Assembly (NCBI GenBank): GCA_021162935.1
Contig: JAGGXR010000063.1
Span: 10,043 to 74,042 of the forward strand
Origin: Deltaproteobacteria bacterium
GTDB taxonomy: Bacteria > Myxococcota_A > Polyangia > HGW-17 > SLPX01
Direction: 5' to 3'
DNA: 64,000 nucleotides
The position numbers and the translations under genes were made by a program. Shown here piece after piece: positions 2,931 through 58,926 of this stretch. Each line of letters begins with the position of its first letter. Position 1 is the stretch's first letter. The notes beneath the pieces are model-generated. The model saw only the letters and a list, made by a program, of their open reading frames with translations. It did not search any database and was not told where the DNA came from.

Positions 2931-3095
2931 CTAAGGAGGCTGTTCAAAATAGAATTGCCAATTTGGGGCGTCGAGGCGCCCGTCTGGCACGAAGCGACGA
3001 GGGCGCGTACCGGGTGGTACGCAACCGACGAGCGACAAAGCCAGGCGGGATGGATCGGCGTTCCAGATGGCAGATTTATTCTGACCAGCCTCCTA
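2931..3095. mobile_element. MITE-like element, full copy A (165 bp) with terminal inverted repeats
   Basis: Ends taaggaggctgttcaaaat ... attctgaccagcctcctaa are imperfect inverted repeats. The whole element is about 93% identical to the reverse complement of 36610-36775. Intergenic. Internal ORFs 2855-3160(-) and 2873-3229(+) are artefacts. Confidence 0.8.
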
Positions 3096-3156
3096 AACAT
3101 TTGTCTGCGTGTTGGGGCCTGCTTTCCGGTTTCGGTGGCCGCGGGGAGCCGAACGC

Positions 3157-4533
3157 TCATGGCACGGAGACGAAGGCCATCTTCATGCGAAAGTTCGGAC
3201 TGTCTCCTTCAGACCAGGCGACCACGTAGACGTCACCAACGACGTGGGCGGCGGCTGGAGCATAGGGCGGAACCAGGGAGTCTGTCACCGCCCGTAGGGT
3301 GCCCAGGGTGAATTGGCTGCCATCGAAGGTAAACCCCTGGGCCGTGAATTGGTTGTGGAATCCGCTGATGTTTCGATACCAGAACACCGCACCACCGTTC
3401 GCAGCGGCGACCACCCTCGGTGCATAGTCCCGCCCACTGGTTGCGCCCAATGTGATGGATGCCGCGCTGCCGTTCATGTCCGTGCCGTCAGTGAGTATGA
3501 TGTCGTCGTTGGAGGCATAGGCCAAATAGAGAAGGTCGTTGGCCGGATCAACGGCGTAAAAGCTGGACGTGTCGCCGGCAACGGTGGCCACGACGCGAGG
3601 CGGTTGGGGCTGCGGGGTCGCATCTCCTGCTGGTATCATGGCCTGAACCACCTCGTTGTCCTGTCCGTTTCCTCCGCGGACGTAGCTCAAATAGATGTCG
3701 CCCTTGGAGTTCGCTGCGATGCTGGGATAGCTGTCGAAGCGACCGTCTTCGACGTAGCCGTCCACCGCGTTACCCACCAGACTACCGTTTTCGTCGAGGC
3801 TCTGTACGAAGGCCTGGAAGCCGGAAGCCACCGGAAGGCCCCTGACTGCAGCGATGGCGAATCCACCGGTGGGCAGAGCGGCCACCTGGGGACTCATGAC
3901 GTTGCCTGACACGGGCGTTGCGTCGTAGGTGGTTTCAAGGAAGCGGTCGCTCGTCATTTGTGGACTGCCGTCCGGGGCGAAGATCCGGTACGCCACGTCC
4001 ATGTTGTCGATTCCGGTTCCGTTGTCCGAAGACCAGACTACGTAGATGGCATCGTCGGCGATGGCGAGGTCCGGGTCCACGTCGTTTCCCTCGGTCGTGT
4101 TCACCTTGAATGGGGCCATGAGCCGGGATCCGTTGCAACCGAATCGGCTGAGGTACACGTCGAAGTCGCCGTTGTCGTTCGGGAGATTATAGACCAGCCA
4201 GACATCGTGACCATCGAAGGCCACCGCCGCGTGAATCTGGCTGTCCGGCCCCTGGGGATCCACCTCGAAGGGCGTGTCGAGCTGAAGCTGCTCTTGGCAG
4301 GTCTGCGGAACGCCTGCGTCGCCGCCGTCCATGTCCATGGTGGCATCAACGTCCATCCCGATGGCGTCGTGTTCGATTCCCGCATCCTTTCCAGGGCCAG
4401 CATCGGAGCTCTGTTGCGAAGGTGAGGAACAGCCAGCAAACAACAAGGGGACGGCGCACGACAAGAGCCAAAGTGACGGTCGAATCCAGGTGGACTCGAC
4501 GAAGAACGAAGAGCGAAGACCATTTCGATTCAT
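3157..4533 (-). CDS. Secreted lipoprotein, repeat-containing (possible beta-propeller), function unknown
   Basis: Start moved to the ATG at 4533 (MNRNGLRSS..., RBS aggaga). Signal peptide ends in lipobox LFAGC. Body is rich in D/G/Y repeat-like segments. Confidence 0.55.
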   Translation of the reverse strand: MNRNGLRSSFFVESTWIRPSLWLLSCAVPLLFAGCSSPSQQSSDAGPGKDAGIEHDAIGMDVDATMDMDGGDAGVPQTCQEQLQLDTPFEVDPQGPDSQIHAAVAFDGHDVWLVYNLPNDNGDFDVYLSRFGCNGSRLMAPFKVNTTEGNDVDPDLAIADDAIYVVWSSDNGTGIDNMDVAYRIFAPDGSPQMTSDRFLETTYDATPVSGNVMSPQVAALPTGGFAIAAVRGLPVASGFQAFVQSLDENGSLVGNAVDGYVEDGRFDSYPSIAANSKGDIYLSYVRGGNGQDNEVVQAMIPAGDATPQPQPPRVVATVAGDTSSFYAVDPANDLLYLAYASNDDIILTDGTDMNGSAASITLGATSGRDYAPRVVAAANGGAVFWYRNISGFHNQFTAQGFTFDGSQFTLGTLRAVTDSLVPPYAPAAAHVVGDVYVVAWSEGDSPNFRMKMAFVSVP

Positions 4534-5186
4534 GTGTCTGTCTCCTGGGAAATACTGCCGAAGGTTGAACATCTCAGTGATGTCCAGGAATACAGATTCT
4601 ATGATAACAGGTTGTGGTTGGTCAGGGAATTGGTTCGAACCACCACCGGCAGGGACAGACCCAAATCCAGCCGACGCCAAAGACCGACAGAGAGCGCGAA
4701 CTCAGTCGTGAGACGATGTGCGATGGGGCGGGCCTGTTTGCGTCCCTGTCACAAGCAAAGGCGTCCATCCGGCGCGAATGCGCCCGAATGTTTCGACGAA
4801 TTGTCATCGGTTGGTTGAGCCATCCTGACAAAGTGGCGCAATGGTTCGTTGGTGTCGTTCTGGAAGATTTTTTAAATGATAATGAAATCAAAGCGTTGCT
4901 AAAGATTTTTCCTTTTGGCACGGGTCATGCTGTTCAACTGGGTACGAGGGCCGAAGGACCCCAACGATGCATAGGAGGTGCTCCCATGAAGACAGCAGGA
5001 CCACTCGCCATGACCATGGAAAACAGCGTGATAGCCGACCTACCGGCGGAACTCATCGCCAACCTACGAGCCAGGATTGCCCGACGCCCAGGCCGATGGC
5101 GTCGTAGGATGCAGCCCAGGAGCAAGCGGAAGCGCGAGGTCGAAGGCCCCATGCCGGCTTCGGTCTGAGGATACGCAACAGCTTCC

Positions 5187-6380
5187 CTACGGCCGTTCGA
5201 GCATCATGGCCTTGCCCATGCCGCCGCCCACGCAGAGGCTGGCGATGCCCCGGTGCAGATTTCGATGCTGCATTTCGTGGAGCAGGGTCACCACGATACG
5301 GCAGCCCGTGGCGCCGACCGGATGCCCGAGTGCGATTCCCGATCCATTGACGTTCGTGATGCTTCGGTCGAGTTCGAGTGCTTTTTCGCAGGCCAAGTAC
5401 TGGGCGGCAAAGGCTTCGTTCAGTTCGATGAGTTCGATGTCCGAGATGGACAGTTTTTGCCGTTCGAGGAGCTTTCGGATCGCCGGGACCGGGCCGTATC
5501 CCATCCGTTCTGGTTCCACACCCGCCACCTGGTGGTCCACGATGTAGGCCAGAGGCTTCAGGCCGTGCTTTTCGGCGAAGCGTTCCGAAGCCAAGACGGT
5601 GGCGGCCGCTCCGTCGTTGATTCCGGATGCGTTTCCTGCCGTGACGGTTCCGTCCTTTCGGAATGCGGGTTTCAGCTTGGCGAGCTTTTCCATGGTCGTG
5701 CCGCGCCGTGGATGTTCGTCCTGGTCCAGGACGATTTCTTCACCCTTGCGTCCCTTCTTGACCACTGGCACGATTTCGTCTTTGAAACGGCCCTCGTCGA
5801 TGGCGGCGATGGCGCGATTTTGGCTCGTCAGTGCGAGTTCGTCCTGTTCCTCTCTCGTGAGGTGAAATTCTTCGGCCAGGTTTTCGGCCGTGACGCCCAT
5901 GTGGAAGTGGCCAACCGGGTCGGTCAAACCTTCAGTGAGCATGTCGGTCGCCTTGCCGTCCCACATGCGCTTGCCCCAGCGCATGTCGTACAGGGCAAAG
6001 GGAATCCGGCTCATGTTTTCCACGCCTCCCGCCAGGATCACCTCCGACTCGCCGGTCTGGATCTGCTGCATGCCGAAGACCATGGCCTGCATGGCCGAAG
6101 AACATTGACGTTGGATGGTGCATGCCGGCACTTGGGGTGGGATGCCCGCTTTGAGCGAGATGACCCGACCGACGTTGATCTCGTCGGTCCGCGACATGCA
6201 GTTTCCCATCAGGACGTCATTGAGTTGGTCGGGTTGGATGCCCGCCCTGGTCATGGCCTCCTGTGAAACGACGCGGCCCAGCTCCGAAGCCGGGACGTCC
6301 TTGAAAATGCCCCCGAAGGTGCCGATAGCGGTTCGTACCGCACTGAGGATGACCACCCGATCCTTACGTTCCTGTGCCAT
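5187..6380 (-). CDS. Acetyl-CoA C-acetyltransferase (thiolase II)
   Basis: 397 aa. N-terminus VVILSAVRTAIGTFGG, the active-site Cys region and a C-terminal GGGMG motif are typical of thiolases. RBS ggagaa upstream. Confidence 0.9.
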   Translation of the reverse strand: MAQERKDRVVILSAVRTAIGTFGGIFKDVPASELGRVVSQEAMTRAGIQPDQLNDVLMGNCMSRTDEINVGRVISLKAGIPPQVPACTIQRQCSSAMQAMVFGMQQIQTGESEVILAGGVENMSRIPFALYDMRWGKRMWDGKATDMLTEGLTDPVGHFHMGVTAENLAEEFHLTREEQDELALTSQNRAIAAIDEGRFKDEIVPVVKKGRKGEEIVLDQDEHPRRGTTMEKLAKLKPAFRKDGTVTAGNASGINDGAAATVLASERFAEKHGLKPLAYIVDHQVAGVEPERMGYGPVPAIRKLLERQKLSISDIELIELNEAFAAQYLACEKALELDRSITNVNGSGIALGHPVGATGCRIVVTLLHEMQHRNLHRGIASLCVGGGMGKAMMLERP

Positions 6381-6394
6381 GTCGTTCTCCTTGT

Positions 6395-6462
6395 TCTGCC
6401 GTAGGCGGAGTTCTGCCGTAGGCGGAGTCCTGCCGTAGGTGGAGTCCTGCCGTAGGCGGACC
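6395..6462. repeat. Tandem array of a 17-bp unit, four copies (tctgccgtaggcggagt x2, cctgccgtaggtggagt, cctgccgtaggcggacc)
   Basis: Read directly from the sequence. Sits 15-82 bp upstream of the thiolase start, inside the 395-bp divergent intergenic region shared with the PMM gene. Confidence 0.85.
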
Positions 6463-6775
6463 CATTGTCGTGTCGTGATCCCGACGGGCCTGTGAGTGCC
6501 GACGCGGTGCGCCCGATTCGCCGCAACTCATGTTCGAGAGTGTTTTTCTTCGCAACCATCTTGTCAAGCCACCGGCATGTCGTCTCAAGCCACGAACCGG
6601 CATGTCGTCATGGGTAGGCGAATGGAAAGGTCTTGCAACGAGCAGGGCAATCGAGCATCTTTGGCACAGCAGACACATGCTCTGCCTGCAGGGCAACTGG
6701 TCCAAGGAAGGACCGGATACGTTGCTCGGAGCGCCTCGGTCGAGGCGGGGCGGGGTAGACAATGAACGAGGAGGT

Positions 6776-8122
6776 ATGATCGTGGCAGATCCGTTCAAGG
6801 CATACGATGTTCGAGGACTCTATGGCAAAAATGTGACCGACGAGTTGGCCTACCAGGTCGGTCGGGCCTTCGTGGCGCACACGGGGGCGCGGCGCGTGGT
6901 GCTGGGGCACGATATGCGGGTTTCCTCGCCGGCTCTGGCTCGCGAATTTGCTCGTGGATTGAGTGAGGCGGGCGCTGACGTGGAGGACATCGGGCTGGCC
7001 AGCACGGACATGCTCTACTTTGCGGTGATCGATCACGATGCGGACGGCGGGATCGAGGTGACTGCGTCTCATAATCCGGCCCAGTACAACGGATTCAAGG
7101 TGACCAGGAAGCATGCGATTCCGCTTGGTCTGGGCAGCGGCCTGGAGGCGATCGAAGAGCGGGTTCGGTCGAACGACTTGGGGCCCAAGGCGGACAAGCC
7201 CGGAACGGTGACCCAGGTGAACGTGCTCGACGATTTCATTGCGTTCATGCATTCGTTCGTGGACCCGTCCAAGCTGGCGCCGTTGAAGGTCGTGGTGGAC
7301 GTGGGCAATGGAATGGGCGGCATGATTGTGGAGCGGCTGTTCGAAGGGTCGCCGGTGCATCTGGTTCCCTTGTTTTTCGAGCTGGATGGAAACTTTCCAA
7401 ATCACGAGGCCAATCCGCTTTTGGAGGAGAACCGGCGCGACCTCATTGCGAAGGTTCGCGAGGTCGGAGCGGACGTGGGCATCGGTCTGGATGGCGACAC
7501 GGATCGTGCGTTCTTCGTGGACTCGGACGGCTCTTTCTGTTCCGGGGACTTCATTCTGGGTCTGCTGGCGCAGCCCGTGCTGAGGAGTCGTCCCGGCGCG
7601 CTCATCACGTATGACGTGCGTTGCTCGAATTATGTACCCGACACGGTCAAGCGGCTCGGCGGCAGGAGTTTGGTGGGCAAGGTTGGCCACGCCTACGCCA
7701 AGAACCTCATGCGCGAGCATCAGGCTGCGTTCGGCGGCGAGGTTTCGGGCCACTACTATTTCAAGCATCGAGGGGCCTATTTCGATTCGGGCAATCTGAC
7801 CTCGTTGCTTCTGCTCCAGACGCTGACCGAAATGAAGGCGTCGCTCAAGGAAGCCATGGTCGAAACCAAGGACTATCATGTGAGCGGCGAGATCAACTCA
7901 CGAGTGCAGGATGCCGACGAGGTGCTCGACCGGATCGAAAAGATGTTCGGTCCGCGTGGGGAACTGCTCAAGATCGACGGCGTGTCGGTGGTGGGAGACC
8001 GTTGGTGGCTCAACGTCCGAAAGAGCAATACGGAACCGCTGGTTCGCCTGAACTGTGAAGGCCCCACCAAGGAGGCGATGGAGCAGCTTCGGGACGAAGT
8101 CTTGGCGGTGATTCGGCAGTGA
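6776..8122 (+). CDS. Phosphomannomutase/phosphoglucomutase
   Basis: TASHNPAQYNGFKV active-site phosphoserine motif and a GLDGDTDR metal-binding loop. Start set to the ATG at 6776 (MIVADPFKAYDVRG) preceded by gaggagg. The track ORF from 6530 is over-extended. Confidence 0.85.
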   Translation: MIVADPFKAYDVRGLYGKNVTDELAYQVGRAFVAHTGARRVVLGHDMRVSSPALAREFARGLSEAGADVEDIGLASTDMLYFAVIDHDADGGIEVTASHNPAQYNGFKVTRKHAIPLGLGSGLEAIEERVRSNDLGPKADKPGTVTQVNVLDDFIAFMHSFVDPSKLAPLKVVVDVGNGMGGMIVERLFEGSPVHLVPLFFELDGNFPNHEANPLLEENRRDLIAKVREVGADVGIGLDGDTDRAFFVDSDGSFCSGDFILGLLAQPVLRSRPGALITYDVRCSNYVPDTVKRLGGRSLVGKVGHAYAKNLMREHQAAFGGEVSGHYYFKHRGAYFDSGNLTSLLLLQTLTEMKASLKEAMVETKDYHVSGEINSRVQDADEVLDRIEKMFGPRGELLKIDGVSVVGDRWWLNVRKSNTEPLVRLNCEGPTKEAMEQLRDEVLAVIRQ

Positions 8123-16967: not shown

Positions 16968-17600
16968 TCATGCCTCGGCCGAACGCGGTTTGGTCATGTC
17001 TCGAAATTCGGCCAGGTCCGCGCGGAGCCGTTCCAGTGCATACCGCATCCTGCTCTTGACCGTGTTTTCCGGGCAGCCCAAAATAGCGGCGATTTCTTTG
17101 AAGGGCAGACCAGAAGCTTCTCGGAGCAGGAATACCTCCTTCTGTTCGTTGGGCAGCCTGTCCACGGCTTCCTCGATTTTTGTTCTGAGCCGCCCTTGCA
17201 TGACCTGACGTTCGACCCCTGCATTTGGGTCTTGAACTTTTTGTCCAAGGGTCCGCTCATCATTGTCCCTGGACGATTGATCGAGCGAGGTCGTCTTGCG
17301 GTGGGTCATGCGGCGCAGGTGGTCCACGCAGAGATTTCGCGTGATTCGATAGATCCAGGTGGAAAACTTTGCTCGGCCCTCGAATTCGTTTCCGGATCGG
17401 ACGACTTTGAAAAACACCTCCTGGAGGAGTTCTTCGGCCATGTCTCGACGGGAGACGAATCTCAAGATGAACGAGTAGAGTGGTCTCCTGTACCGGGAGA
17501 ACAGCACATCGAATGCCTGGGGGTCTCCCGAGCCGTACCGATCGAGGAGTTCTTCATCCGTCAGATCGTGCAACGACTTCGCCTCGTTTCTGCACAGCAA
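16968..17600 (-). CDS. ECF (sigma-24/sigma-70 family group IV) RNA polymerase sigma factor
   Basis: Region 2 (LLDRY...FDVLFSRYRRPLYSFILRFV) and region 4 HTH (LPNEQKEVFLLREASGLPFKEIAAILGCPENTVKSRMRYAL). The start codon at 17600 is TTG in the track; the exact start is uncertain. Confidence 0.85.
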   Translation of the reverse strand: MLCRNEAKSLHDLTDEELLDRYGSGDPQAFDVLFSRYRRPLYSFILRFVSRRDMAEELLQEVFFKVVRSGNEFEGRAKFSTWIYRITRNLCVDHLRRMTHRKTTSLDQSSRDNDERTLGQKVQDPNAGVERQVMQGRLRTKIEEAVDRLPNEQKEVFLLREASGLPFKEIAAILGCPENTVKSRMRYALERLRADLAEFRDMTKPRSAEA

Positions 17601-17619
17601 ACACCCGGCGCCTCGGCGG

Positions 17620-17655
17620 CCAAATAGGTAATCCTATTTTGAACAGCCTCCTTAG
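17620..17655. repeat. Partial MITE terminus (36 bp) of the 2931/36610 family
   Basis: ccaaataggtaatcctattttgaacagcctccttag matches the right end of copy B. It lies between the ECF sigma start and the tdk stop and contains the tdk stop codon (TAA on the minus strand, 17652-17654). Confidence 0.65.
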
Positions 17656-18242
17656 TCGATACCCAGTCCTTCCTGGTGCGGCCCTTTCCCTTCGGGCACG
17701 AAGCAGCGCCTGCAGCGCGCCTCGTAGGTCTCTCGGTCTCCCACCATGAATCGCGAGGTGCTTTCCACGAGTCGTTGGCTCCGTGACGCTGGGTTGCCGC
17801 AGACGACACAGATCGCGAGCACCTTCTTCACGTATTCGGCCATGGCCATCAGTCTTGCCATGGCTTCGAATGGTTCGGCACGAAAATCCAGGTCCAGTCC
17901 GGCAACGATGACCCGTTTGCCCGCGTTCGCCAGTTCTTCGCATGCTGATACCAGATCGACGTTGAAGAATTGTCCTTCGTCGATGCCCACCACGTCGGCG
18001 TGTTCAGCGCCCTTGACGATATCGGTCGGTCGGTCCACCGACACGCAGGCCAGTCGGACGTCGGCACGGCTCACGATTTCCGTAGCCCCTGCACGGGTAT
18101 CGATGGCTGGCTTGAACACCACGACGTTCTGTTTCGCGATGGTGGCCAGGCGGCATCTTCGAATGAGTTCCTCGGATTTTCCACTGAACATGGGACCCGT
18201 GATTACTTCGATCCAGCCGATATCCCTTGGCGTCGGATTCAT
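17652..18242 (-). CDS. tdk: Thymidine kinase
   Basis: P-loop GPMFSGKSEELIRR, a conserved Asp/Glu region, and a C-terminal zinc ribbon CVVCG...CRRCF. 196 aa. Confidence 0.9.
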   Translation of the reverse strand: MNPTPRDIGWIEVITGPMFSGKSEELIRRCRLATIAKQNVVVFKPAIDTRAGATEIVSRADVRLACVSVDRPTDIVKGAEHADVVGIDEGQFFNVDLVSACEELANAGKRVIVAGLDLDFRAEPFEAMARLMAMAEYVKKVLAICVVCGNPASRSQRLVESTSRFMVGDRETYEARCRRCFVPEGKGPHQEGLGID

Positions 18243-18738: not shown

Positions 18739-18870
18739 CCGCGTTTTGACGCCACAATCTCTGTCCGTCTCCAGTATTTTCCCCACACATGGACACTTCC
18801 TGCTTCTTTGCCCCTTTATCTGGTTACCCCATTTACCCGACGACCCGACGACCCGACGATTGAGGTCGAG
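18739..18870 (+). repeat. 128-bp intergenic repeat, copy 2 (family R2)
   Basis: Paralogous to 472-600. Lies in the long intergenic region upstream of the saccharopine-dehydrogenase-family gene. Confidence 0.7.
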
Positions 18871-19082
18871 TTTCCGCCATTGACAAGCGGGATGGGGCGC
18901 CTGGCTTGTCGATCAATATTCGATTCGTTCTTCCTGCACGTTTTCCTATTCTCTGTTGCCCCTGTCGCTCATGCAGCAGACCCGTTCGTTTTGGACAAAC
19001 AGCTTGACAAGGCAGCGATCCGTGTGTTCGAACCCCAAAAGAGCAGGGGAACGCAGGTCGTGTTCCTTTTGTGGAGGTTGTG

Positions 19083-20219
19083 ATGGCAGAGATCGTGGTA
19101 TTGGGTTGTGGACTGATGGGGCGCGTGATCGCCGAGGACCTTGCAGATCAAGGACGAAACCACGTGGTGGTGGTGGATCGTCGGGCGGATGCGGCCGCCT
19201 TCGTCGAGGGGCTCGATTCGGTGGAATTTCGGCGGGTGGACGTGTCGGACGTGGGACGGACCGGTGATTGGTTCGAACAGGCGGACTTGGTGGTGGGCGC
19301 CCTGCCGGGGGCGGTGGGATTCGCCATGCTGCGGCGGCTCATTCGGGCCGGATGTCGACGCGTGTTGGATATTTCTTTCATGCCGCAGGACCCCATGGAA
19401 CTGGACGCCCTTGCCCGGGAGAAGGGCGCGTGCTGCGTGGTGGACGGCGGCGTGGCGCCTGGCTTGAGTCACATGCTCGCCGCACACCTTTCGAGTCGGA
19501 TCGAACAGCCAGAGGAGCTGCGCATCCTGGTGGGCGGCCTGCCTCAGCGCAGGAGTCTGCCGTTCGAGTACATGTCGGTGTTTTCCCCGAGGGACGTGAT
19601 CGAGGAATACACGAGGCCGGCACGCATTCGGTGGGCGGATCGTGTGGTGGAACGACCGGCCCTGAGCGGCCTGGAACTGGTGGACGTACCAGGGGTGGGA
19701 ACCCTGGAGGCCTTCTTGACCGATGGGCTTCGAAGTTTGCTCCGGGACGAGACGATTCCGTTCATGGAAGAAAAGACGCTTCGCTATCCAGGTCACGCGG
19801 CCAGGATGCAGATGCTGGCCGATGCCGGCTTCTTTGCCGTGGACCCGGTGGCCTTGAGCGATGCGACGGTGCGACCGGTGGAACTGACGGCCAAGCTGCT
19901 CGAACAGGCCTGGCGGCCCAAGGCGGGAGACCTGGATCTCACGGTGCTGCATGTGGAGGTGTCAGGCAAGGACGCTTCGGGCGAGCCCGTACGCTGGCGG
20001 GCCGACATGCTCGACAGGGCGCAGCCCGAGGGACCGAGTTCCATGGCACGGACCACGGGCTACACGGCGACCGGGTTGGCCAGGCTCCTGCTGAACGACC
20101 GATGGACCGCACCGGGTGTGACTGTGCCAGAGACGATTGGTCGCGACTCGGATCTCGTCGAGGCTCTGATCGCCCACATGAAGGAACGGAAGGTTCGGAT
20201 CGACATTTCGGGTGGCTGA
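19083..20219 (+). CDS. Saccharopine dehydrogenase (NADP-binding) family oxidoreductase
   Basis: N-terminal Rossmann motif IVVLGCGLMGRVIAEDL. Length and C-terminal region are typical of the Sacchrp_dh family. ATG at 19083 with ggagg 5 nt upstream. Confidence 0.65.
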   Translation: MAEIVVLGCGLMGRVIAEDLADQGRNHVVVVDRRADAAAFVEGLDSVEFRRVDVSDVGRTGDWFEQADLVVGALPGAVGFAMLRRLIRAGCRRVLDISFMPQDPMELDALAREKGACCVVDGGVAPGLSHMLAAHLSSRIEQPEELRILVGGLPQRRSLPFEYMSVFSPRDVIEEYTRPARIRWADRVVERPALSGLELVDVPGVGTLEAFLTDGLRSLLRDETIPFMEEKTLRYPGHAARMQMLADAGFFAVDPVALSDATVRPVELTAKLLEQAWRPKAGDLDLTVLHVEVSGKDASGEPVRWRADMLDRAQPEGPSSMARTTGYTATGLARLLLNDRWTAPGVTVPETIGRDSDLVEALIAHMKERKVRIDISGG

Positions 20220-20221
20220 TG

Positions 20222-20252
20222 GATGGCAGATCTGTTCTGACCAGCCTCCTGA
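20222..20252. repeat. Solo MITE terminus (31 bp)
   Basis: gatggcagatctgttctgaccagcctcctga matches the right end of MITE copy A. Sits 3 bp after the saccharopine-DH-family stop. Confidence 0.6.
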
Positions 20253-30406: not shown

Positions 30407-33400
30407 ATGGAGAAAAGAAGGATCGGCCAAGGTAAGGCCATACAGGAGCGCAGCATCGAGGCGGACATGATGGAAGTGTCTGCTTTGCTGGCGCGGGAAG
30501 CACGGGAGTTCCCTGATCGAGACCGTCGTGAGGCGTTGTATCTGAGATTGGCAGTGATCTGTTGGATCCTGTTCGAGGACCTGGATGCCGCTCTTCGCTA
30601 TCTGGATGAGATCGAGTCGCTGTCGGCCGATGGATACCTGTTCAAGAGAAGTTTGTTGTTGGCGGCAGGAGACAGGGTCGGGTTGCGTCGTTTGCTCGAT
30701 TTATCCGTGTCCGAAGGCGTTTGTGCGAGTATTTCTTCGTGTACGCTGGCGGCGGCCGAGACCTTCGCCTTCGTCGAGCAGGATTGGCAAAAGACAGCAG
30801 CTCGTTCGAAGCATATGTTTGGGGGACCGTTCGATGAATCCCTGAACGAGTTGGTCACCTTGGCGCTTGAAATGGCCAAGGACCGCAAGGCCCTCATGCG
30901 GCATTTATCGGAACATGGAGGCATGGCGGGGCATTTCAGGTTGGCGACGATCGTTGGCGACGTGGAGGAACACCGCGAGGAATCCATGCGTATCCTGCGG
31001 GAAATGCTCGATACGCTGCAGGGGGCGGATGAGCATGACTCCTCGACGGAGGCGATGACCAGGTTGGTGTTGGAACGGTTGTGGGAGTTGAACTTCGTCC
31101 GTCCGCCGCTGCGGATTCCTGCCGCTGTGGGCGTCGATTGCCTTTTGGGAAAGAAGTTGGAGCTATTGGGGGACGTGCCCGAGGAGATGTCCGAGGCAAA
31201 CGTGGTGCGGTATCTCCTTGCCCAATGGCACCGGGAACAGGGGGCCCTGGATCGAACGGCCGAGATGCTGGAGTCATTGGCGCAATCCGAGAACCGTTGG
31301 GGGCGGTGTCTCGCGTTAGAGTCGCGCCGTGCGGTCGCCGTGGAGCGAGCCCAGTGGAAGGAACTTTCTGGCTTCTATTCTGAATTGGCAGATGAACTGA
31401 CCGGTTCGTCCTGGAGCGGTGTCTATCGTTTTCGAGCTGCGGAATTGGCGGAGTGCTCCTATTCGACTGACGAAGAGGTGGAAACACTCGCTCGTCAGGC
31501 GCTTGCGGACCTGAAGGATGGAGCACAGGCTCTTGCGATGTTGGAGCGAATCCTGGCCAGGCGCGGCGACGTTGCTGGGCTGGCGGATCTGTTCGAAGCA
31601 GCAGCGGAACGCACGGGGAAGCATCATTACGCCCGTTGGGCGGCACATGTCGTCGAGTTTCAGGTCTCCGACCCGGAGCGGGCCAAGGCGCTTCGATTCT
31701 TTGGGACTACGGATCCTTCGTTTGAGGACCTGTTGGACCGGGTTCGGGTCGAATGGCGGCTCCATCACGCGGACCAGGTGCGGACGTTGTGCGAGACGCT
31801 TGCTGGCTGCGCCATACAGCAAGGGGATGGGGACAGCGGGAAATGGTGGTCGTCGATATGGTCGCTGGCCGCAGGGCTGTCTGCCCTGCGGGTCGAGGAC
31901 GGCATGGAGGCCGAGCGCTTGTTGAAGCAGGCCGTGGATGCGGACTCTTCGGAGCCGGTGGCTTCCATGGCCTTGGCGGTTTTCTATCGCCGTTGGGGGC
32001 AATGGGATGCGGCGATCGAGCGGCTCGAAATGGTCGGAGATCTTCTTAGGTCCACGGCCGCCAAGGTGCATGCCCTGCGAACTCTGGCTCGGGTTGCCGG
32101 GATGCACACCGACCGCACCGACTTGGCCGAAAAGAGTCTGGAAAAGGCGCTGGAGTTGACCCCGGACGATCCGGCTGTCCTCCATGAAATGGCGTTGCTG
32201 GCCGACAAGAGAGAGGATTTCGAACGGGGGCTGCAGCTTCGTCACAAGGCTGCGACGTTGCTCGAGGGCAGCTTCCGTGCCGCCGTCTTGTGGGCTGAAA
32301 TCGGTCGTAGTTATGCGGAACATGGCGACGATGAGGCCGCCGAAAAGGCGTTTGTTCGGTCATTGGATGTGGACGAGAGCCAGATGGATGTTCTGACCGA
32401 TCTCAGTGACATCTACCGCAGACAGCGTCGATGGCCGGAATTGCTCGAATCGGTTCAGCTGCTGCTGGAGCGGGACGAGGAACACGCGGCGGATCTCCAT
32501 GTCGAGGCAGCGCGGCTCGTTCTGAGACAGCACATGGATACGAGCGAGGCTCTTGGCCATTATCGGACCGCGCTCGAGATCAATCCTGAGCATGACAAAG
32601 CCCTCAATGGGCTTGAACGCCTCTGCCGACGAGAAGGGCGTTGGGCGGACCTGATCGACGCGCTTCGCAAGGTGCCCGCAAATGCTGATCGGGTCACCAT
32701 GTTGCTCAATGCATTCGAACGTCTGTCACAGTGGGACGAACTCATCGAGGTGGCGGAGAAGCGCATCGAGGAGACTGGAGATGTGAGTGAGGTGGCTGAG
32801 CTTGCGAGGCGCATCGCCAGCGTCTATGAGTCACAGCTCGGTCAGCCCGATGATGCATTGACCTGGTACAAGAAGGCGTTCGTCGCCAACCCCGGGGACC
32901 GTGAGGTTGCTGCGGTTTACGAAAAGTACTTGAGTCGGGAGGAGCGCTGGGAGGATCTGGCCGAGGCGCTCAAGAGAGAGGTCCAGGTCCTTTCCGACGA
33001 CAAGAAACGTGCCCTGAAGGTGCGCAGGAGATTGGCCGACGTGTTGGCGGACCGTCTTGGGCAGGTTGGGGAGGCGGTTTCCGTTCTGGAACAGGTCGAC
33101 AAGGATGGAGAAGCCAATGAAGATATTTGGCTTCGATTGGCCGACCTGTATGGCCGACTGGGGCGTGTCAAGGATGAACTGGATGTCCTGGAACGGATTG
33201 CTGGGTCCAGTCGAGACCGCGACATGCAGGTGTCCCTGCTCGTCCGGGCGGGAAAGGTTCGAGAGGAGAAAGGGGACGACGAGGGCGCTCTGCAGACGTA
33301 TATCCGTGCCTTCCAGCTCGACCCCGCTCACCGGGATGCTTTTACGGCTGTCGAGCGTCTCTGTTACAAGCTCAAGGTATGGAAGGAGACGTTGGACCTC

Positions 33401-36400
33401 TACAATCGTGCCATCGAGTTGGTGGAACAGCAGGGTAGCAGGGCCTATCGACTGGCGGATCTCTATGCCCGCCGTGGGCAGCTCCAATTGCAGTATATGT
33501 CCCAGCCGGGTGAGGCTGCGGCATCGTATCTCAAGGTCCTGGAGCTTGATCCCAATGAGGACAGGACGGTCAAGTTTCTCGAGTCTATTTTCTCGGAAGA
33601 AGGCGACTGGGAAGGCCTCATGGCGGGCTATGACTATCGTATCAGTCTTCTCGACGATCCAAAAAAGAGGGCCGAGACCTACCGGAGAGCCGCTCGGGTA
33701 GCGGCGGGAAAACTCAACGATCAGAAGCGGGCTTCAGAGTACTACGCGGGCCTGCTCAAGGATGCGCCGGGTGACGACGAGGCACTCGACGCCCTGGAAC
33801 GCCATTATGAACGGAACAGGTTGTGGGAGGAATTGGCGAACATTCTTTTGATGAAGCTGGAGCGCCCGGCTGAGAAAGAAATTCGGGTGGCTCGCTATCT
33901 GCGGCTCGGTCTGATTTATGAAGAAGGGCTCCAGGACGCACAACGGGCCGTGGATGCCTACAAGCAGGGGTTGGAACTCGATCCGAATAATGTGAAAGCG
34001 CTCGAATCGCTTGCTCGCATCTACGAGGCGACCGAGCGTTGGGCCGAGTTCGTGGACGTGGCTCGAAAGCAAATACGGCAAACGGGCGACCGGAATTCCA
34101 AGGCGCTGCTCTACTTCAAATGCGGTTCGGTCATGGAGGCAAAGTTCTCCAAGGAGAACGACGCCATTCGGTATTATAAGGCGGCCATCAAGACTTCGCC
34201 GTCCTGTCTGCCTGCCGTCCACGGGCTTCGCGATCTCTATCTCAGGAAGCAGGAATGGCAGAGGGTCTTGGAGACCCTCGAATTGGAGACGAAGCTGTGG
34301 CAGGAACCTCGTGAAAAGGCCGGTGTCTTCGCCCAGATCGGGAAGGTCTACCTGGATGGCTTGGGCGATTCCCAGAAGGCACGCCGCTATTTCGAGTCCG
34401 CACGAAACCTGGATCCTGAATCCGTTCCTGCTGTGCGTGCCCTGTTCGACATGGCATTCGACTCGCAGAATTGGTCCCGGGCTGTCGAATTGGCTTCATT
34501 GCTCGGACAGAAGGCGATGCGGGAGGGAGAGCCGGCCGAGCGAAGCGAATTTTATCGCAAACGTGGCGTCGTGGCCGAGAAGACGCGGCATTTTCAAGCG
34601 GCGGCGGAGAATTACGTGGCCGCGTTGGATGCCAGGCCCGAGAATCTGGCCGCGTTGGATGCGTTGACCGCGCTGTGTCGCAGTCACCCCTCGGCGTATG
34701 AGTATCAAGATGTGTTCAAGGAATTGGACCACCGATACAAACGCATGGCGTGGCCCGAGGCTCAGGCCCGTATCTTGGTGGCGCGAGGCGCTCTCCAGGA
34801 GCAGTCATACCAGATCGACGAGGCCGAATCTTCCTATCGACAGGCCGTTACCTTGGCGCCTGGCGACCTGAGTGTTCTTGGTTCCATGGTGGACCTGCTG
34901 TATCGGTTGAGACGTTGGTCGGACGCCGTGAAGTTGCTCGAGGAATTCGTACGGCGTTCTGGGGTGTCTCAGGACGATCGGGTGCAGGCTCTCGTTCGTG
35001 CCGGCGGCATCATGTCCGAGGGTGCCATGGACACGAGGGCGGCTGAGAAGTTGTTTCTCAGAGCCCTTCGCCTTCAGTCTCGGAGTCGGGATGCGCTTTA
35101 CGGATTGGCTCAGGAGTTGGTGCTTCAGCGTCGGCTCCAGGAGGCCCAGCGGCGTTGCGCGGAATTGATCGAAGTAGCGGCGGATCCTGCGCATACGGCG
35201 CCGCCGGAAGACTTGGGGCTATACTACTATTACCAGGGCCGCATTTTCGAGGCCATGGGAGATGCTCGAAAAGCTGGCTTGAGCTACAGAAGGGCGGCTG
35301 ATCTGAATCCGGGATACCCACCTCCAGTCATTGCGTTGGGAGAACGGTATCTTCGTGAGGGAGATATTCGTCAGGCGGAGTCTCTGTTGTCGTCCTCGTC
35401 AGTGTCTGCCGAAGAGGTTGGCAGGTTCGAAGAAGCGCTGGAATTGCGCCGTGCCCTCGCGCGCCTCCAGGCCGAAAGCGGTAACCTGGATGCGGCCATC
35501 GGCGAATTGCGCGCCATCGTGGCCGACGATCGCGGAAAGGTCGATGATCGGATAGGCCTGGCCCGATTGTATCTTCGGACCAAGGATGGGTCCGCCGCCG
35601 CGATCGAACAGTTGCTGTCGGCTTTGGAGCAGGAGCCGGCGAACGTTCTGGCGATTCAACTGCTTGCCTCTGTCTGGGCGACCCAAGAACAGTGGGATGC
35701 CGTGCGCCGAGCCTGGGACGTCATGCTGTTGCTCGGACGTTCCGGGGACGTTCCAGAGCAGGCGACAGCCACGGTGCGGCCGAGCATGGAGGCGATGCCT
35801 CATTTGCGCGTCAGCGACGAGGTGACCCAGATTGCATCTCGATTTTCAGGACCGTTCGAGAATCTGTTTCGGGCGATCCGGGGGGGCGTCGACCTGATCT
35901 ACCCCGTGACGTACATTGGCAAGAATCACGTTCCATATACGGATGCGGAAGTGCCAGGTTTCGTCGAGGAGACTCGGTGGCTTCTCAATGCATTTGGTTG
36001 GAAGGATCGCGCGGACGTGTTTGTCGCGGAAGATGTTCCCGGGCGTCTGTCGCTGATGACCAAAGGAGAACGGGTTCAGGTCGTGCTCGATCGTGTGTTC
36101 GTCTCGGGCGACATTGGGATCGTGCGTTTTGCTTTGGCCAAAGCACTTGCGTACGAGCGATTCGGACTGACCGTGTTGGGGCGTCTCGGCCCGAAAGAAC
36201 GCAACGAAGTCGGGCAACTGCTCTTGGGGATTGCGGTGCCTGCAGAGAAGCGTCTTCCTCAAGTTGTGGAGTTCCTCGATGCACTGCCTCGCAAGGAGCA
36301 CAAGGCTGCGGATCGGATTGCTCTCGCCGCCGGGGAAGACATGCTTCTTGCCAGCCCAAGGCAGTGGATGCGGGACGTGGATCGGAGTACCGAGCGACTG

Positions 36401-36613
36401 GCGCTTGCCTTTTTGGATGACATAGTTTTAGCGTTGAAAGCCATGGCTTTGATGCAGGCCGAAGAAATGGTCATCGAATCGGGACAGAATCTGGCACTTG
36501 TTTACGGCGTGGATGGGGCGTGGGAACTGCTTCCATATTATATTGGCCCCGACCAGGCCAGGGCCATCGTGGCACTTTCGTCCGAGCCGGATCAGAAACC
36601 GGTGCAGAATTAG
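30407..36613 (+). CDS. Giant TPR-repeat protein (2068 aa) with a non-TPR C-terminal domain of about 250 aa
   Basis: One continuous ORF. Dozens of 34-aa TPR-like repeats throughout (for example AYIRAFQLDPAHRDAF, ASYLKVLELDPNE). RBS ggggag. The stop TAG at 36611-36613 lies inside the MITE terminus. Confidence 0.7.
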   Translation: MEKRRIGQGKAIQERSIEADMMEVSALLAREAREFPDRDRREALYLRLAVICWILFEDLDAALRYLDEIESLSADGYLFKRSLLLAAGDRVGLRRLLDLSVSEGVCASISSCTLAAAETFAFVEQDWQKTAARSKHMFGGPFDESLNELVTLALEMAKDRKALMRHLSEHGGMAGHFRLATIVGDVEEHREESMRILREMLDTLQGADEHDSSTEAMTRLVLERLWELNFVRPPLRIPAAVGVDCLLGKKLELLGDVPEEMSEANVVRYLLAQWHREQGALDRTAEMLESLAQSENRWGRCLALESRRAVAVERAQWKELSGFYSELADELTGSSWSGVYRFRAAELAECSYSTDEEVETLARQALADLKDGAQALAMLERILARRGDVAGLADLFEAAAERTGKHHYARWAAHVVEFQVSDPERAKALRFFGTTDPSFEDLLDRVRVEWRLHHADQVRTLCETLAGCAIQQGDGDSGKWWSSIWSLAAGLSALRVEDGMEAERLLKQAVDADSSEPVASMALAVFYRRWGQWDAAIERLEMVGDLLRSTAAKVHALRTLARVAGMHTDRTDLAEKSLEKALELTPDDPAVLHEMALLADKREDFERGLQLRHKAATLLEGSFRAAVLWAEIGRSYAEHGDDEAAEKAFVRSLDVDESQMDVLTDLSDIYRRQRRWPELLESVQLLLERDEEHAADLHVEAARLVLRQHMDTSEALGHYRTALEINPEHDKALNGLERLCRREGRWADLIDALRKVPANADRVTMLLNAFERLSQWDELIEVAEKRIEETGDVSEVAELARRIASVYESQLGQPDDALTWYKKAFVANPGDREVAAVYEKYLSREERWEDLAEALKREVQVLSDDKKRALKVRRRLADVLADRLGQVGEAVSVLEQVDKDGEANEDIWLRLADLYGRLGRVKDELDVLERIAGSSRDRDMQVSLLVRAGKVREEKGDDEGALQTYIRAFQLDPAHRDAFTAVERLCYKLKVWKETLDLYNRAIELVEQQGSRAYRLADLYARRGQLQLQYMSQPGEAAASYLKVLELDPNEDRTVKFLESIFSEEGDWEGLMAGYDYRISLLDDPKKRAETYRRAARVAAGKLNDQKRASEYYAGLLKDAPGDDEALDALERHYERNRLWEELANILLMKLERPAEKEIRVARYLRLGLIYEEGLQDAQRAVDAYKQGLELDPNNVKALESLARIYEATERWAEFVDVARKQIRQTGDRNSKALLYFKCGSVMEAKFSKENDAIRYYKAAIKTSPSCLPAVHGLRDLYLRKQEWQRVLETLELETKLWQEPREKAGVFAQIGKVYLDGLGDSQKARRYFESARNLDPESVPAVRALFDMAFDSQNWSRAVELASLLGQKAMREGEPAERSEFYRKRGVVAEKTRHFQAAAENYVAALDARPENLAALDALTALCRSHPSAYEYQDVFKELDHRYKRMAWPEAQARILVARGALQEQSYQIDEAESSYRQAVTLAPGDLSVLGSMVDLLYRLRRWSDAVKLLEEFVRRSGVSQDDRVQALVRAGGIMSEGAMDTRAAEKLFLRALRLQSRSRDALYGLAQELVLQRRLQEAQRRCAELIEVAADPAHTAPPEDLGLYYYYQGRIFEAMGDARKAGLSYRRAADLNPGYPPPVIALGERYLREGDIRQAESLLSSSSVSAEEVGRFEEALELRRALARLQAESGNLDAAIGELRAIVADDRGKVDDRIGLARLYLRTKDGSAAAIEQLLSALEQEPANVLAIQLLASVWATQEQWDAVRRAWDVMLLLGRSGDVPEQATATVRPSMEAMPHLRVSDEVTQIASRFSGPFENLFRAIRGGVDLIYPVTYIGKNHVPYTDAEVPGFVEETRWLLNAFGWKDRADVFVAEDVPGRLSLMTKGERVQVVLDRVFVSGDIGIVRFALAKALAYERFGLTVLGRLGPKERNEVGQLLLGIAVPAEKRLPQVVEFLDALPRKEHKAADRIALAAGEDMLLASPRQWMRDVDRSTERLALAFLDDIVLALKAMALMQAEEMVIESGQNLALVYGVDGAWELLPYYIGPDQARAIVALSSEPDQKPVQN

Positions 36614-36775
36614 GAGGCTGGTCAGAATGAATCTGCCATCTGGAACGCCGATTCATCCCGTCTGGCTTTGTCGCTCCTCGGTTGCGTACCACCCGGTACG
36701 CGCCCTCGTCGCTTCGTGCCAGACGGGTGCCTCGACGCCCCAAATTGGCAACCCTATTTTGAACAGCCTCCTTAG
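36610..36775. mobile_element. MITE-like element, full copy B (166 bp), inverted relative to copy A
   Basis: Runs ttaggaggctggtcagaat ... ttttgaacagcctccttag. About 93% identical to the reverse complement of 2931-3095. Abuts or overlaps the 3' end of the giant TPR gene. Confidence 0.8.
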
Positions 36776-36907: not shown

Positions 36908-37846
36908 ATGAATCAGAAATTTCAGGCTACGATTCAACAGCGTGACGATGTGACCTACCTAAAACTGTCGGGGGTCATTGATGAAGACAATGAGTTGTTC
37001 GACATTCTGGACAGTGTCGGGCCGGGGTCTGCGGTCATCAATCTGTCCGAAATCGAGCGGATCAATTCCTGTGGCGTTCGCGACTGGGTGAATTGGTTGA
37101 ACAAGCTGGAGAAGAAGGGGTCCAAGGTGGTCTTGGTGGAGTGCAGTCCAGCCATTGTCGCCCAGATTAACCTGGTCAACAACTTCACCGGAAACGGCAT
37201 CGTCAAGAGCTTCTATGCTCCGTATTTTTGTCCGGCCTGCGATCTCGAAAAAGTCCTCCTCGTGGACATGGATGATGTGGCCGGCATGGATGAGCCCAAG
37301 GCTCCCATCTGCCGTTGCGATGAATGCGATGGTGTGATGGATTTCGATGACATGGAGGAGTCGTATTTCGCGTTCGTTTCGACGGCGCACAAAGGGGCCG
37401 TCGACGCCCATGTGACCAAGGTCGTTTCGGAATTGGCCGAGGACGACGGATCCGGCGGAGGTCGGGTCAAGACTCGGAAGTCGTCGAGTTTTTCTTCGGT
37501 GGGTTCGTCGCGGAGTCGGACTGGGTCGCAGGTTTCGAGTGTGTCGTTACCGTCCCTTCCGTCGGTGCCGTCGCTTCCATCTCTTCCTTCTTTGTCCAGT
37601 ATTGAACAATCACGTCCGGGGCACGGTGGGAACTCGGCCCCGATGGCTCCGGCTCCACGTTCCGCCAAGACGAATCTCGTCCTGATCGTGGTGGCCATTC
37701 TCCTGCTCGTTGCTATCGTCATGCTCGCTTACGTGATTTTTGGCATGAACAGCAAGGGCCATGGGTCGGATTCAGCGGCTGTCGTCCTGGGATTGTTGGA
37801 GGCTGGTTCGGCTGCAGGAACCTACAGAAGTAGTTCTTTTTTGTAA
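36908..37846 (+). CDS. Membrane-anchored STAS-like domain plus Cys4 zinc-ribbon protein
   Basis: [21 protein letters not shown]...[22 protein letters not shown] then [11 protein letters not shown]...CRCDECDG. Ser/Pro-rich linker ([19 protein letters not shown]). TM segment [24 protein letters not shown]. Confidence 0.6.
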
Positions 37847-51356: not shown

Positions 51357-51640
51357 CCATGTGGACCTGGTTGTCGCACGCCATGGAACGAGCGGCGGGG
51401 CTCACCCATTCGCTTCTGGCGGAACAGGCGACCTCGCTGGCTCAGTTCCAACTTGCAGAGATGGAGCGGTTTTTTGCACTCCTCGTGCTTGGGCCTGTGG
51501 TTGGTCTGCCCACGGCTCCACCGGCTCTGGCATTGGACCTGCTGCCCTTGATGGAAGCCGAGCTTACGGATCTCATTCGAAGCACGCCCGACTTGATGGA
51601 CATGCAAGGCCGACTGGCCGGTGTCTTTGATATCACATGA
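51353..51640 (+). CDS. Small hypothetical protein translationally coupled to cstA
   Basis: 95-aa ORF overlapping the cstA stop (ATGA). It occupies the position of the ybdD-type small gene that often follows cstA, but shows no sequence resemblance I can assert. Confidence 0.3.
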   Translation: MTMWTWLSHAMERAAGLTHSLLAEQATSLAQFQLAEMERFFALLVLGPVVGLPTAPPALALDLLPLMEAELTDLIRSTPDLMDMQGRLAGVFDIT

Positions 51641-51860
51641 CGGATCACGCCGTGGCGGGCCACGCCGAGAGGGACCACGCCGAGACGGGCCACGCTGTGG
51701 CGGGCCACATGTGGTTGGTCCAAGATGGATGATTGATGACGGATGATGGACCATCGCAGCGTACAGGGTGACGGCATGCAGCATTGCAGGCGGATCGAGG
51801 TTTGATTCCATGGCCGGACGTTCGAATCGAGAACGGGATGAGAGGCGGGATGATCGAGCG

Positions 51861-55435: not shown

Positions 55436-55730
55436 CGACTTCCCCCAAATCCAGGGATCAAAATCAGGATTCCATTATAATTCTGTCTGGATAGGTCTGC
55501 CCACAAGTGAAAATGGGGGATTTCCATACGAGACAAAATGGACCTCCAGTTGGTAAGGAAAGGGGGTTGAACGCCTTATTTTCCTTTGCCAAGACAAGAA
55601 GGTCCATGCCCATGGCACATCGAATCGGTTGGAAATTACGAGCACAAATCGACACTCCGGGCATTTAGATGGGGAGGCTTGTCCTGGCCGGCATAGAAGG
55701 TCAAAATAGGACCGGCCGGACGCGGGGTAG
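55436..55730 (+). repeat. 295-bp low-GC direct repeat, copy 1 (family R3)
   Basis: About 93% identical to 58597-58890. Begins 6 bp after the stop of the preceding gene. GC content is well below the local average. Internal short ORFs differ by indels between copies, so it is non-coding. Confidence 0.8.
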
Positions 55731-55739
55731 GAGGTATTG

Positions 55740-56307: not shown

Positions 56308-56556
56308 ATGGAAAGCACCGCACATGAGAAGCGTCAATGGGTCAGACTGACTTACGCATGCAATAACAAGTGCGTTTTTTGTCATGACAGCATTGTGCAA
56401 AGCGGCGAGATGGTACCCCGTGAAATCCTGGAAAAGGAGATATCAGAAGGCCAGGACCAGGATTGTCGCGCGGCCGAGATCTGCAAGCGCTTCAGACGAT
56501 GCGCGGCACGAGAGGCAACCTGCGTGGCTTCGGAACCGGACGATCCGTCACAGTAG
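56308..56556 (+). pseudogene. N-terminal fragment (82 aa) of a radical SAM enzyme
   Basis: WVRLTYACNNKCVFCHD carries the CxxxCxxC motif. The ORF stops after about 60 further residues where it abuts the convergent pectate-lyase-like gene. GC is about 50%. Confidence 0.5.
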
Positions 56557-58443: not shown

Positions 58444-58596
58444 GATGCCCCCTACACTCCATGAGAAAATTGATGGATTCGTAAAAAGTCGGATTTTTTC
58501 AAGTAACTGAAACAATTGATTAAGTTCTCATTTTTGCTTGACATGATATCTTGCTTGTAGCACATTTATTTCATGATTTCAATTCATTACAGGACA

Positions 58597-58890
58597 GAAC
58601 TTCCCCCAAATCCAGAGATCAAAAACAGGATTCGATTGTAATTCTGTCTGGATAGGTCTGCCCACAAGTGAAAATGGGGGATTTCCATACGAGACAAAAT
58701 GGACCTCCAGGTGGTAAGGAAAGGGTGTTAACGCCTTATATCCCTTTGCCAAGACAAGAAGGTCCATGCCCTTGGTGCATCGAATCGGTTGGAAATTACG
58801 AGCACAAATCGACACTCCGGGCATTTAGATGGGGAGGCTTGTCCTGGCCGGCATAGAAGGTCAAAATAGGACCGGCCGGGCGCGGGGTAG
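58597..58890 (+). repeat. 295-bp low-GC direct repeat, copy 2 (family R3), abutting a hairpin and the transposase gene
   Basis: Paralog of 55436-55730. Its last 22 nt plus the following sequence form the inverted repeat ggaccggccgggcgc...gcgcccggccggaggtcc (58869-58922), immediately before the transposase ATG. Confidence 0.8.
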
Positions 58891-58926
58891 TAGCCCCATG
58901 GTTTGCGCCCGGCCGGAGGTCCAAAC

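Follow-up and report, generated by a model that had tools for sequence, protein, structure and literature searches.

A 159-base non-coding mobile element (MITE) that inserts at TAA/TTA and carries a conserved, strand-asymmetric hairpin

What lies at this locus is a short, non-coding repeat set among ordinary genes. The window, that is, the whole 64-kb stretch of DNA which was analysed, has a G+C content of ~59%, and the genes neighbouring the repeat are those for an amidase, a thymidine kinase, an ECF sigma factor, a saccharopine dehydrogenase-like enzyme, a radical SAM protein, a 2068-aa TPR protein, and a STAS protein. Proteins identical to the window's are found on contigs from samples SPET22-1 and JGI 3300017593, with no exact-protein record found for ORF 3157-4680 (as delimited here). 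Two full copies of the repeat are present, in opposite orientation. A repeat search of the window recovers them as arms of 166 nt (2931-3096 and 36610-36775) which are 96% complementary, and blastn places their identity at 95.8%. Both searches confirm the repeat as real, and each full copy consists of an element proper of 159 nt, running from GG to CC, which is bounded on both sides by a trinucleotide. The features are as follows.

2932..2934, + strand: left target-site duplication of copy 1, TAA, read directly; the matching TAA is at 3094-3096
2935..3093, + strand: full copy 1, element proper, 159 nt, GG...CC; 131.6 bits by nhmmer against the family profile
2935..2950, + strand: left terminal inverted repeat of copy 1, GGAGGCTGTTCAAAAT, from motif search and alignment
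2968..2982, + strand: conserved 5' half of the inner helix and loop (GCGTCGAGGCGCCCG), pairing with 3046-3060, from alignment and consensus fold
2994..3036, + strand: apical domain, i.e., GCGACGAGGGCG, a short covarying hairpin (3006-3021), then CAACCGACGAGCGAC, from alignment and fold
3046..3060, + strand: conserved 3' half of the inner helix and loop (CGGGATGGATCGGCG), from alignment and consensus fold
3078..3093, + strand: right terminal inverted repeat of copy 1, ATTCTGACCAGCCTCC (reverse complement GGAGGCTGGTCAGAAT)
3094..3096, + strand: right target-site duplication of copy 1, TAA, read directly
17607..17654, - strand: solo left end, ~45 nt plus TAA, from repeat, blastn and profile searches
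20222..20249, + strand: solo right end, 28 nt at 93% identity, then TGA, from repeat and motif searches
36610..36612, + strand: target-site duplication of copy 2, reading TTA on the + strand, read directly
36613..36771, - strand: full copy 2, element proper, 159 nt, between the TPR gene and the STAS gene (36908-37846)
36772..36774, + strand: second target-site duplication of copy 2, reading TTA on the + strand

Copy 1 is flanked by two genes of the - strand, a Transgly_assoc-like gene whose end is near 2452 and a gene of 458 aa that ends at 3157, and both of the full copies are antisense to their flanking genes. The solo left end matches over 39 nt at 90% identity, extending to 50 nt at 88%, while the solo right end begins 2 nt beyond where the saccharopine dehydrogenase-like gene (19071-20219) stops. 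An end motif, AGGAGGCTGKTCARAAT, occurs six times in the window, once at each end of either full copy and once at each solo end (17636-17652 and 20234-20250), against a shuffle expectation of 0.51, with six occurrences reached in 0 of 100 shuffles. A permissive profile search of the 64 kb found no further copies beyond these two full and two partial ones, and a third solo end was seen elsewhere, in locus L009.

Much of this had been anticipated by a sequence-only reading of the window, which had proposed a MITE-like repeat (MITE being used here for a small, non-autonomous DNA transposon) with two full and two partial copies. The partial copies are real, as is the high similarity of the full ones, though the ~93% identity which was claimed is slightly low given the 95.8-96% measured. 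The 19-bp inverted repeats that were described do exist as inverted ends, but their outer TAA does not belong to them: that TAA is a direct repeat, the target-site duplication, and the inverted repeat proper starts at GG. An AGGAGG within the inverted repeat is likewise present in the subfamily of the window, but is not a feature of the family, other subfamilies having GGGTTCGCG, GGGCTTGTG, GGACCCGCG and others instead. The same reading took the element to lack coding capacity, and this holds up. Public annotations call no gene across it, such that ORFs crossing the element are to be viewed as artefacts, and its substitutions are of a compensatory, pairing kind rather than codon-like.

Relatives were sought first by end and then by core. 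A scan of a genome collection with the 17-mer end motif returned mostly chance matches, the true ones being 11 loci from three MAGs only, i.e., CAYFWA01 and CAYOTU01 (both 'uncultured Myxococcales') and JBDRSE01 ('bacterium'), at 76-81% identity. As the alignment of these homologues displayed compensating stems beside stretches conserved in sequence, metagenomes were then scanned using a pattern of three such stretches, requiring GAGGGCG, AACCGAYGA and GATGRATC. That scan found copies on at least 120 metagenome contigs, with 104 complete copies among the matches listed. Across representatives the element is 154-163 nt in length, and among the matches listed the host contigs range from 36 to 73% GC while the core sequence stays conserved. 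An unannotated copy also is carried by plasmid NZ_CP087953.1 of Desulfosarcina sp. BuS5 (Thermodesulfobacteriota), at 100044-100206 (L232:5999-6169) and flanked by TTA/TTA. This plasmid has conjugal-transfer (Tra) genes and is typed as non-mobilizable by MOB-suite. In viral contigs the core pattern matched nothing, and the six matches there to a shorter pattern were due to chance, being rejected by the family profile.

No gathering-level Rfam match was found in the window, and at permissive thresholds the window plus four related loci gave only chance-level hairpin matches to microRNA precursor models. Full-text searching of the literature for the core strings, together with MITE and IS5 keyword searches, found no description of the family. 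The family is large and apparently undescribed, and occurs in many sediment and symbiont bacteria. At least 16 contigs end inside of a copy, as would be expected because such a repeat breaks assemblies; the contigs of L244 and L239, for example, stop inside or beside the element. In one relative (L208) a copy has itself been entered. Its two halves are ~1.7 kb apart, flanked by TAA and TTA, and within its core, between GGCAAGGCGCGAG and GAGGGCG, is an insertion sequence with a 533-aa transposase ORF (L208:278-2180, - strand), which from its sequence I take to be of the IS110 family. This suggests that the family may serve as a landing site for IS110-type elements.

A search for target-site duplications, which the sequence-only reading had called for, found them here as well as about copies in other genomes. 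Every well-bounded copy is GG...CC with a trinucleotide on each side. For ~100 homologous copies, among the matches listed, the flanks of the well-bounded ones are TAA/TAA in 29 cases and TTA/TTA in 27, with a handful mixed, a count which combines a boundary table with the manual reading of mis-bounded rows. Tips are paired in every subfamily, those of the window copies being the 16-nt GGAGGCTGTTCAAAAT and GGAGGCTGGTCAGAAT, and both kinds of flank occur inside single subfamilies of near-identical members, e.g., five TAA and eight TTA in the case of GGGTTCGCGA. As concordant flanks place A opposite A, or T opposite T, in the hairpin described below, pairing cannot explain their concordance, whereas a duplicated target does. 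TAA and TTA are furthermore reverse complements, and therefore represent a single target which has been entered in both orientations. Reconstructed, the empty site reads C-TAA-G, with the C present in 36 of 56 cases and the G likewise in 36 of 56, i.e., CTWAG. A few subfamilies (L135, L157) instead are flanked by CTAG, which is the target type of the IS5 group. Duplication of TA (as by IS630-type elements) or of TTAA was considered and rejected, since either would require that the ends of the element vary.

A filled site can also be compared with an empty one. The STAS protein adjoining copy 2 has an 89%-identical homologue on L246/L247, where the element is absent. There, at the same stop codon as copy 2, the empty site reads CAGAACTAGgcga, and the spacer between the TPR gene and the STAS gene is 118 nt, versus 295 nt in the window. 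The TPR gene ends as ...CAGAACTAG in L246/L247 and as ...CAGAATTAG[GAGG...159 nt...CCTCC]TTAgcc in the window. The lineages being compared are not isogenic strains, as their intergenic DNA has diverged (CTA as against TTA at the site itself).

Copies also land beside or upon one another. At L011:4347-4682 two copies of different subfamilies are back to back, one being inside of the TAA which flanks the other (a shared TAA), and at L191:246-578 two copies, again of different subfamilies, are back to back in inverted orientation and a few bases apart. At L182:1368-2319 a single 191-aa gene, presumably pyrE-like from its translation, has a copy on either side, both in the same orientation, and the arrangement mimics a 939-bp composite element. 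L243:5029-5202 joins the left flank, TAA and element of window copy 1 (2932-3096) to a TTA and the end of an SBP_bac_5 gene. Either this is a real rearrangement, i.e., a recombinant between two copies, or it is an assembly chimera, but such a junction across two copies shows how the rare mixed flanks can arise.

The repeat, in short, is a 159-base non-coding mobile element, a MITE, which inserts at TAA/TTA. It is small, has terminal inverted repeats, is accompanied by a duplication that varies with the site, has no gene called over it, and is dispersed among several genomes (four MAGs, one plasmid, and at least 120 metagenome contigs), with presence and absence seen at orthologous sites. The MITE reading with which the analysis began is therefore supported.

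Where copies land relative to genes is not haphazard. Of 82 unique copies, 34 (~40%) sit against an ORF 100 or more codons long whose stop codon is exactly the duplication (TAA) or is formed from the duplication together with the element's first G (TAG). At no other scanned offset does such an ORF end beside any of the 82 copies. Orientation relative to the abutted gene is unbiased, with 14 copies sense and 20 antisense. The window provides both kinds of stop. The TPR gene (30407-36613, 2068 aa) has a TAG stop at 36611-36613 that is composed of the copy 2 duplication and the first G of the element, and the thymidine kinase gene (17652-18242, - strand) has a TAA stop at 17652-17654 that is the TAA of the solo left end. 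In the latter case the kinase at the junction (17470-17760) is of 196 aa and stops at the element's TAA, ~45 nt of left end come next, and the ECF sigma gene begins 52 nt beyond the kinase stop. The kinases of relatives are of 203-208 aa, and in L252 and L254, in both of which the kinase is of 208 aa, the kinase and sigma genes overlap by 8 nt. The simplest reading of this junction would be of an insertion followed by a deletion, with the alignment too diverged to fix the boundaries of the latter. Remnants of such elements, as the solo end between thymidine kinase and ECF sigma factor illustrates, can become built into gene boundaries.

A mechanism by which such a distribution might come about can be sketched. 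A transposase encoded elsewhere would bind the terminal inverted repeats over ~16-20 bp, and the 159-bp element would enter the pentamer CTWAG via a 3-nt staggered cut, repair of which would then duplicate TWA (TAA or TTA). The duplicated TWA plus the element's first G would rebuild a stop codon. In G+C-rich genomes TAA and (T)TAG occur mostly as stop codons, CTAAG and CTTAG being for the most part the contexts of stops, and insertions at stop codons presumably are tolerated because the duplication rebuilds the stop. Such insertions would be nearly neutral and so may accumulate at the 3' ends of genes, in either orientation. Landing upon stop codons while also rebuilding them would be a clean example of target choice making a transposon nearly harmless.

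Taken as a whole, the account of a non-autonomous DNA transposon with IS5/PIF-type insertion into CTWAG is one which I hold to be probably correct. Both the family of the transposase and mobilization in trans are suggested by the duplication and target signature, the assignment to family resting upon this insertion signature because no partner was found. Specifically, an autonomous element with matching ends, as sought by the sequence-only reading, was not found in the window, in ~230 related loci (~1.4 Mb), or on the BuS5 plasmid. A search for inverted, TWA-flanked arms which are 0.4-4 kb apart and enclose a transposase found none, matching only the two MITE copies of L182. A motif scan of ORFs of the related loci for an IS4/IS5 transposase signature was negative, no partner element lay beside the chance 17-mer matches, and no protein or ORF recurred beside the copies, the last being as expected for scattered insertions. 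Transposases of the BuS5 plasmid (IS4, IS3, Tn3) were considered as partners and rejected, the ends of its IS4 being unrelated, and an ORF upstream at L209, which I take to be a decayed IS4-like C-terminus, is uninformative in this regard.

The element is more than a decayed insertion sequence with inverted ends, as its interior is a conserved, covarying and strand-asymmetric hairpin. RNA folding, as proposed in the sequence-only reading, has the whole element, rather than its inverted tips alone, forming a single long, imperfect hairpin from end to end. The strand 5'-GGAGGCTGTTC... folds at -96.4 kcal/mol (z = -9.6) and its complement at -79.7 using RNA parameters, versus -41.2 and -36.9 for the same strands using DNA parameters. 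A consensus hairpin of 46 pairs was based on 29 representatives, no two of which are more than 92% identical. Standard pairs occupy 92.7% of its cells versus 74.6% in column shuffles (0 of 500 reaching the observed value), and sliding the partners reduces pairing to 30-43% of cells. Compensatory change is seen at 32 of the 46 pairs, running along the whole of the hairpin. The same strand folds better in 37 of 37 representatives, its mean energy being -89.5 kcal/mol against -72.0 over the full element, and -51.4 against -39.0 kcal/mol over the inner part alone. G.U pairs are several-fold commoner than A.C mismatches, by manual count from the pair table.

Unpaired positions are conserved too, and in a manner that differs between the arms. 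In the inner helix, where GTCGAGGCGCC faces GGGATGGATCG, a 2x2 GG/GA loop precedes a G.U pair and a bulged A, and the apical GAGGA opposite GACGA can be read as two tandem G.A pairs about a G-C pair. Invariance of GAGGGCG, AACCGAYGA and GATGRATC is in part imposed, since the metagenome scan required these, but the partner strand GTCGAGGCGCC was not in the search pattern and yet is conserved. Copies found solely by profile or blastn (L140, L191, and that of the BuS5 plasmid) retain the inner-helix motif while having a plain hairpin for an apical domain, i.e., in the BuS5 copy and, as the same variant, at L140:3-159, GAAAGCGTAGGAATATC..GATATTTCTACGCTTTC in place of the GAGGAGGGCG/AACCGACGAG motif. 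From one subfamily to the next it is the terminal repeats that differ widely and the interior that is conserved, where MITEs usually show the opposite; in part this is a matter of ascertainment, as three core motifs had been required by the metagenome scan. The interior is a rod-like hairpin with non-canonical loops that are conserved, and selection maintains it on one strand.

The compensatory changes and the 37-of-37 strand asymmetry are left unexplained by a transposase which reads double-stranded ends, and this counts against a plain MITE account. A different perspective has the element as above all a functional module of structured RNA or single-stranded DNA, for which the ends and duplication are only a means of spreading. 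Selection would then be mainly on the fold, e.g., as a protein-binding small RNA, an RNase III or stability element, or a terminator, which would explain conservation across very different hosts. The excess of standard pairs over shuffles, the compensatory change at 32 of 46 pairs, the better folding of one and the same strand in all 37 representatives, the preference for G.U over A.C, the loops that are asymmetric between arms (GG/GA, bulged A, tandem G.A), and the retention of core sequence across hosts of 36-73% GC all are what such a module should display. Against it are the lack of orientation bias relative to abutted genes, the antisense placement of both full copies of the window, and consensus scans which found no promoter or terminator in the window copies. 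The apical motif can be swapped for a plain hairpin, the core conservation is partly a product of the search pattern, there is no Rfam family, and the module in any case is compatible with mobility by transposition. As a primary description it seems to me unlikely. Movement of the hairpin as single-stranded DNA by an HUH (Y1) transposase, whether as a REP/REPIN with its RAYT or as an IS200/IS605 palindrome-associated element, could be suggested by the length and strand specificity of the hairpin and by the existence of solo and doublet arrangements. Those systems, however, are without target-site duplication, while here left and right TWA co-vary within subfamilies. Nor is there a bias in orientation relative to local GC skew (35 versus 38), as distinct from lagging-strand-dependent elements, nor a Y1 transposase or other recurrent gene beside the copies, and true inverted repeats reach the tips. 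As a duplication is present while strand bias and an associated gene are not, the element is not of REP/REPIN or IS200/IS605 type, and I consider this means of movement to be very improbable.

More improbable still is a family of recombination sites, i.e., integron attC-like or otherwise the target of a site-specific recombinase. The hairpin, being imperfect, strand-asymmetric and about as long as an attC site, would fit with such sites, as would the single gene flanked by direct-orientation copies in L182, but the ends do not have the attC order of R-boxes, the copies are scattered over unrelated housekeeping loci, each is flanked by a duplicated trinucleotide, and no integrase is nearby. Readings as attC, retron, 6S-like RNA or ribozyme were rejected, their defining features being absent.

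Returning to the MITE with IS5/PIF-type insertion as the preferred reading, there still is the matter of what its interior does. Orientation is random both with respect to genes and to GC skew, such that the fold would be selected neither via a host transcript nor via a mechanism dependent on the replication strand, and a host function tied to the neighbouring genes is less likely since orientation relative to them is random. My best guess is that the interior acts as a folded single strand, either as RNA, should the element be transcribed, or as a hairpin or cruciform which joins close-set ends. I would go further only tentatively, and with some doubt: the interior could function as a module of folded RNA or single-stranded DNA, mounted on interchangeable IS5-type ends and selected across distant bacterial phyla, one which binds a conserved protein or acts in its own transposition rather than being a passive relic of some insertion sequence. 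In any case the hairpin core, conserved and strand-specific, is a candidate for a new structured nucleic-acid motif.

Comparison with known systems may help in placing the family. The present insertion signature is shared by DDE transposases of the IS5 family (IS427 and IS1031 groups) and by PIF/Harbinger, the related eukaryotic enzymes that mobilize Tourist MITEs. Tourist MITEs and PIF/Harbinger duplicate TWA, maize PIF preferring CWCTTAGWG, and the pseudo-palindromic CTWAG of the present family resembles that target. Correia elements (NEMIS) of Neisseria are MITEs of 100-160 bp that similarly have inverted ends, a conserved centre, a location adjacent to genes, and long hairpins in transcripts. 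They, however, duplicate TA, are unrelated in sequence, and are known from Neisseria only, versus TWA and distant hosts here. ERIC/IRU elements of enterobacteria and vibrios are likewise non-coding, imperfect palindromes of ~127 bp, puzzlingly conserved across genera and with structure of the transcribed strand, but they too are unrelated in sequence and are not known to have the TWA duplication and stop-codon targeting of the present family. REPINs share with it a long hairpin, multiple extragenic copies, and compensatory evolution, and differ in being tied to RAYT and in having no duplication, while the present family has a duplication and no recurrent neighbour gene.

Closest are MITEs derived from the IS5 family (IS427/IS1031 groups, e.g., IS1237) and Tourist/PIF elements, which also are small, non-coding and multicopy, with a 3-bp TTA/TAA duplication. 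In IS1237 (PMC2516522), a member of the IS5 family intermediate between the IS427 and IS1031 groups, the duplicated target is TTA/TAA and the inverted repeat is GAGGTGGTTTCAG. Short inverted repeats with G-rich tips thus are found in both, i.e., GAGGTGGTTTCAG in IS1237 and GGAGGCTGGTCA here. Unlike with IS5-type and Tourist MITEs, no cognate transposase was found in the loci searched, the terminal repeats are variable and the interior conserved, the hairpin, with its covariation and strand asymmetry, takes in the whole element, and hosts span 36-73% GC. On the criteria tested the family is a MITE with an IS5/PIF-type insertion signature, and it is the structured core and the breadth of hosts which are the features worth following up. 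For genome annotation, the genomes of Myxococcota-like bacteria, of Desulfobacterota, and of many uncultured sediment and symbiont bacteria gain a large repeat family that had been unannotated. Its breaking of metagenome assemblies, along with its capacity to create chimeric contigs (L243, L244, L239), bears on MAG quality.

The window has other repeats as well. Direct repeats of ~300 bp (55438-55733 and 58599-58893), 94-95% identical and 3.16 kb apart, flank an ORF at 56548-58515 (- strand). They lie in the lowest-GC part of the window (52%), where five neighbouring ORFs have 0 Pfam matches. A 49-nt direct repeat (499-547 and 18764-18812), 92% identical, is unrelated to the MITE. Directly upstream of the ORF at 6530-8122 are ~5 head-to-tail repeats of the 17-nt unit GTTCTGCCGTAGGCGGA (6376-6460). 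Short tandem repeats within long ORFs, at 58204-58275 (18 nt) and 51639-51708 (15 nt), probably are coding repeats.
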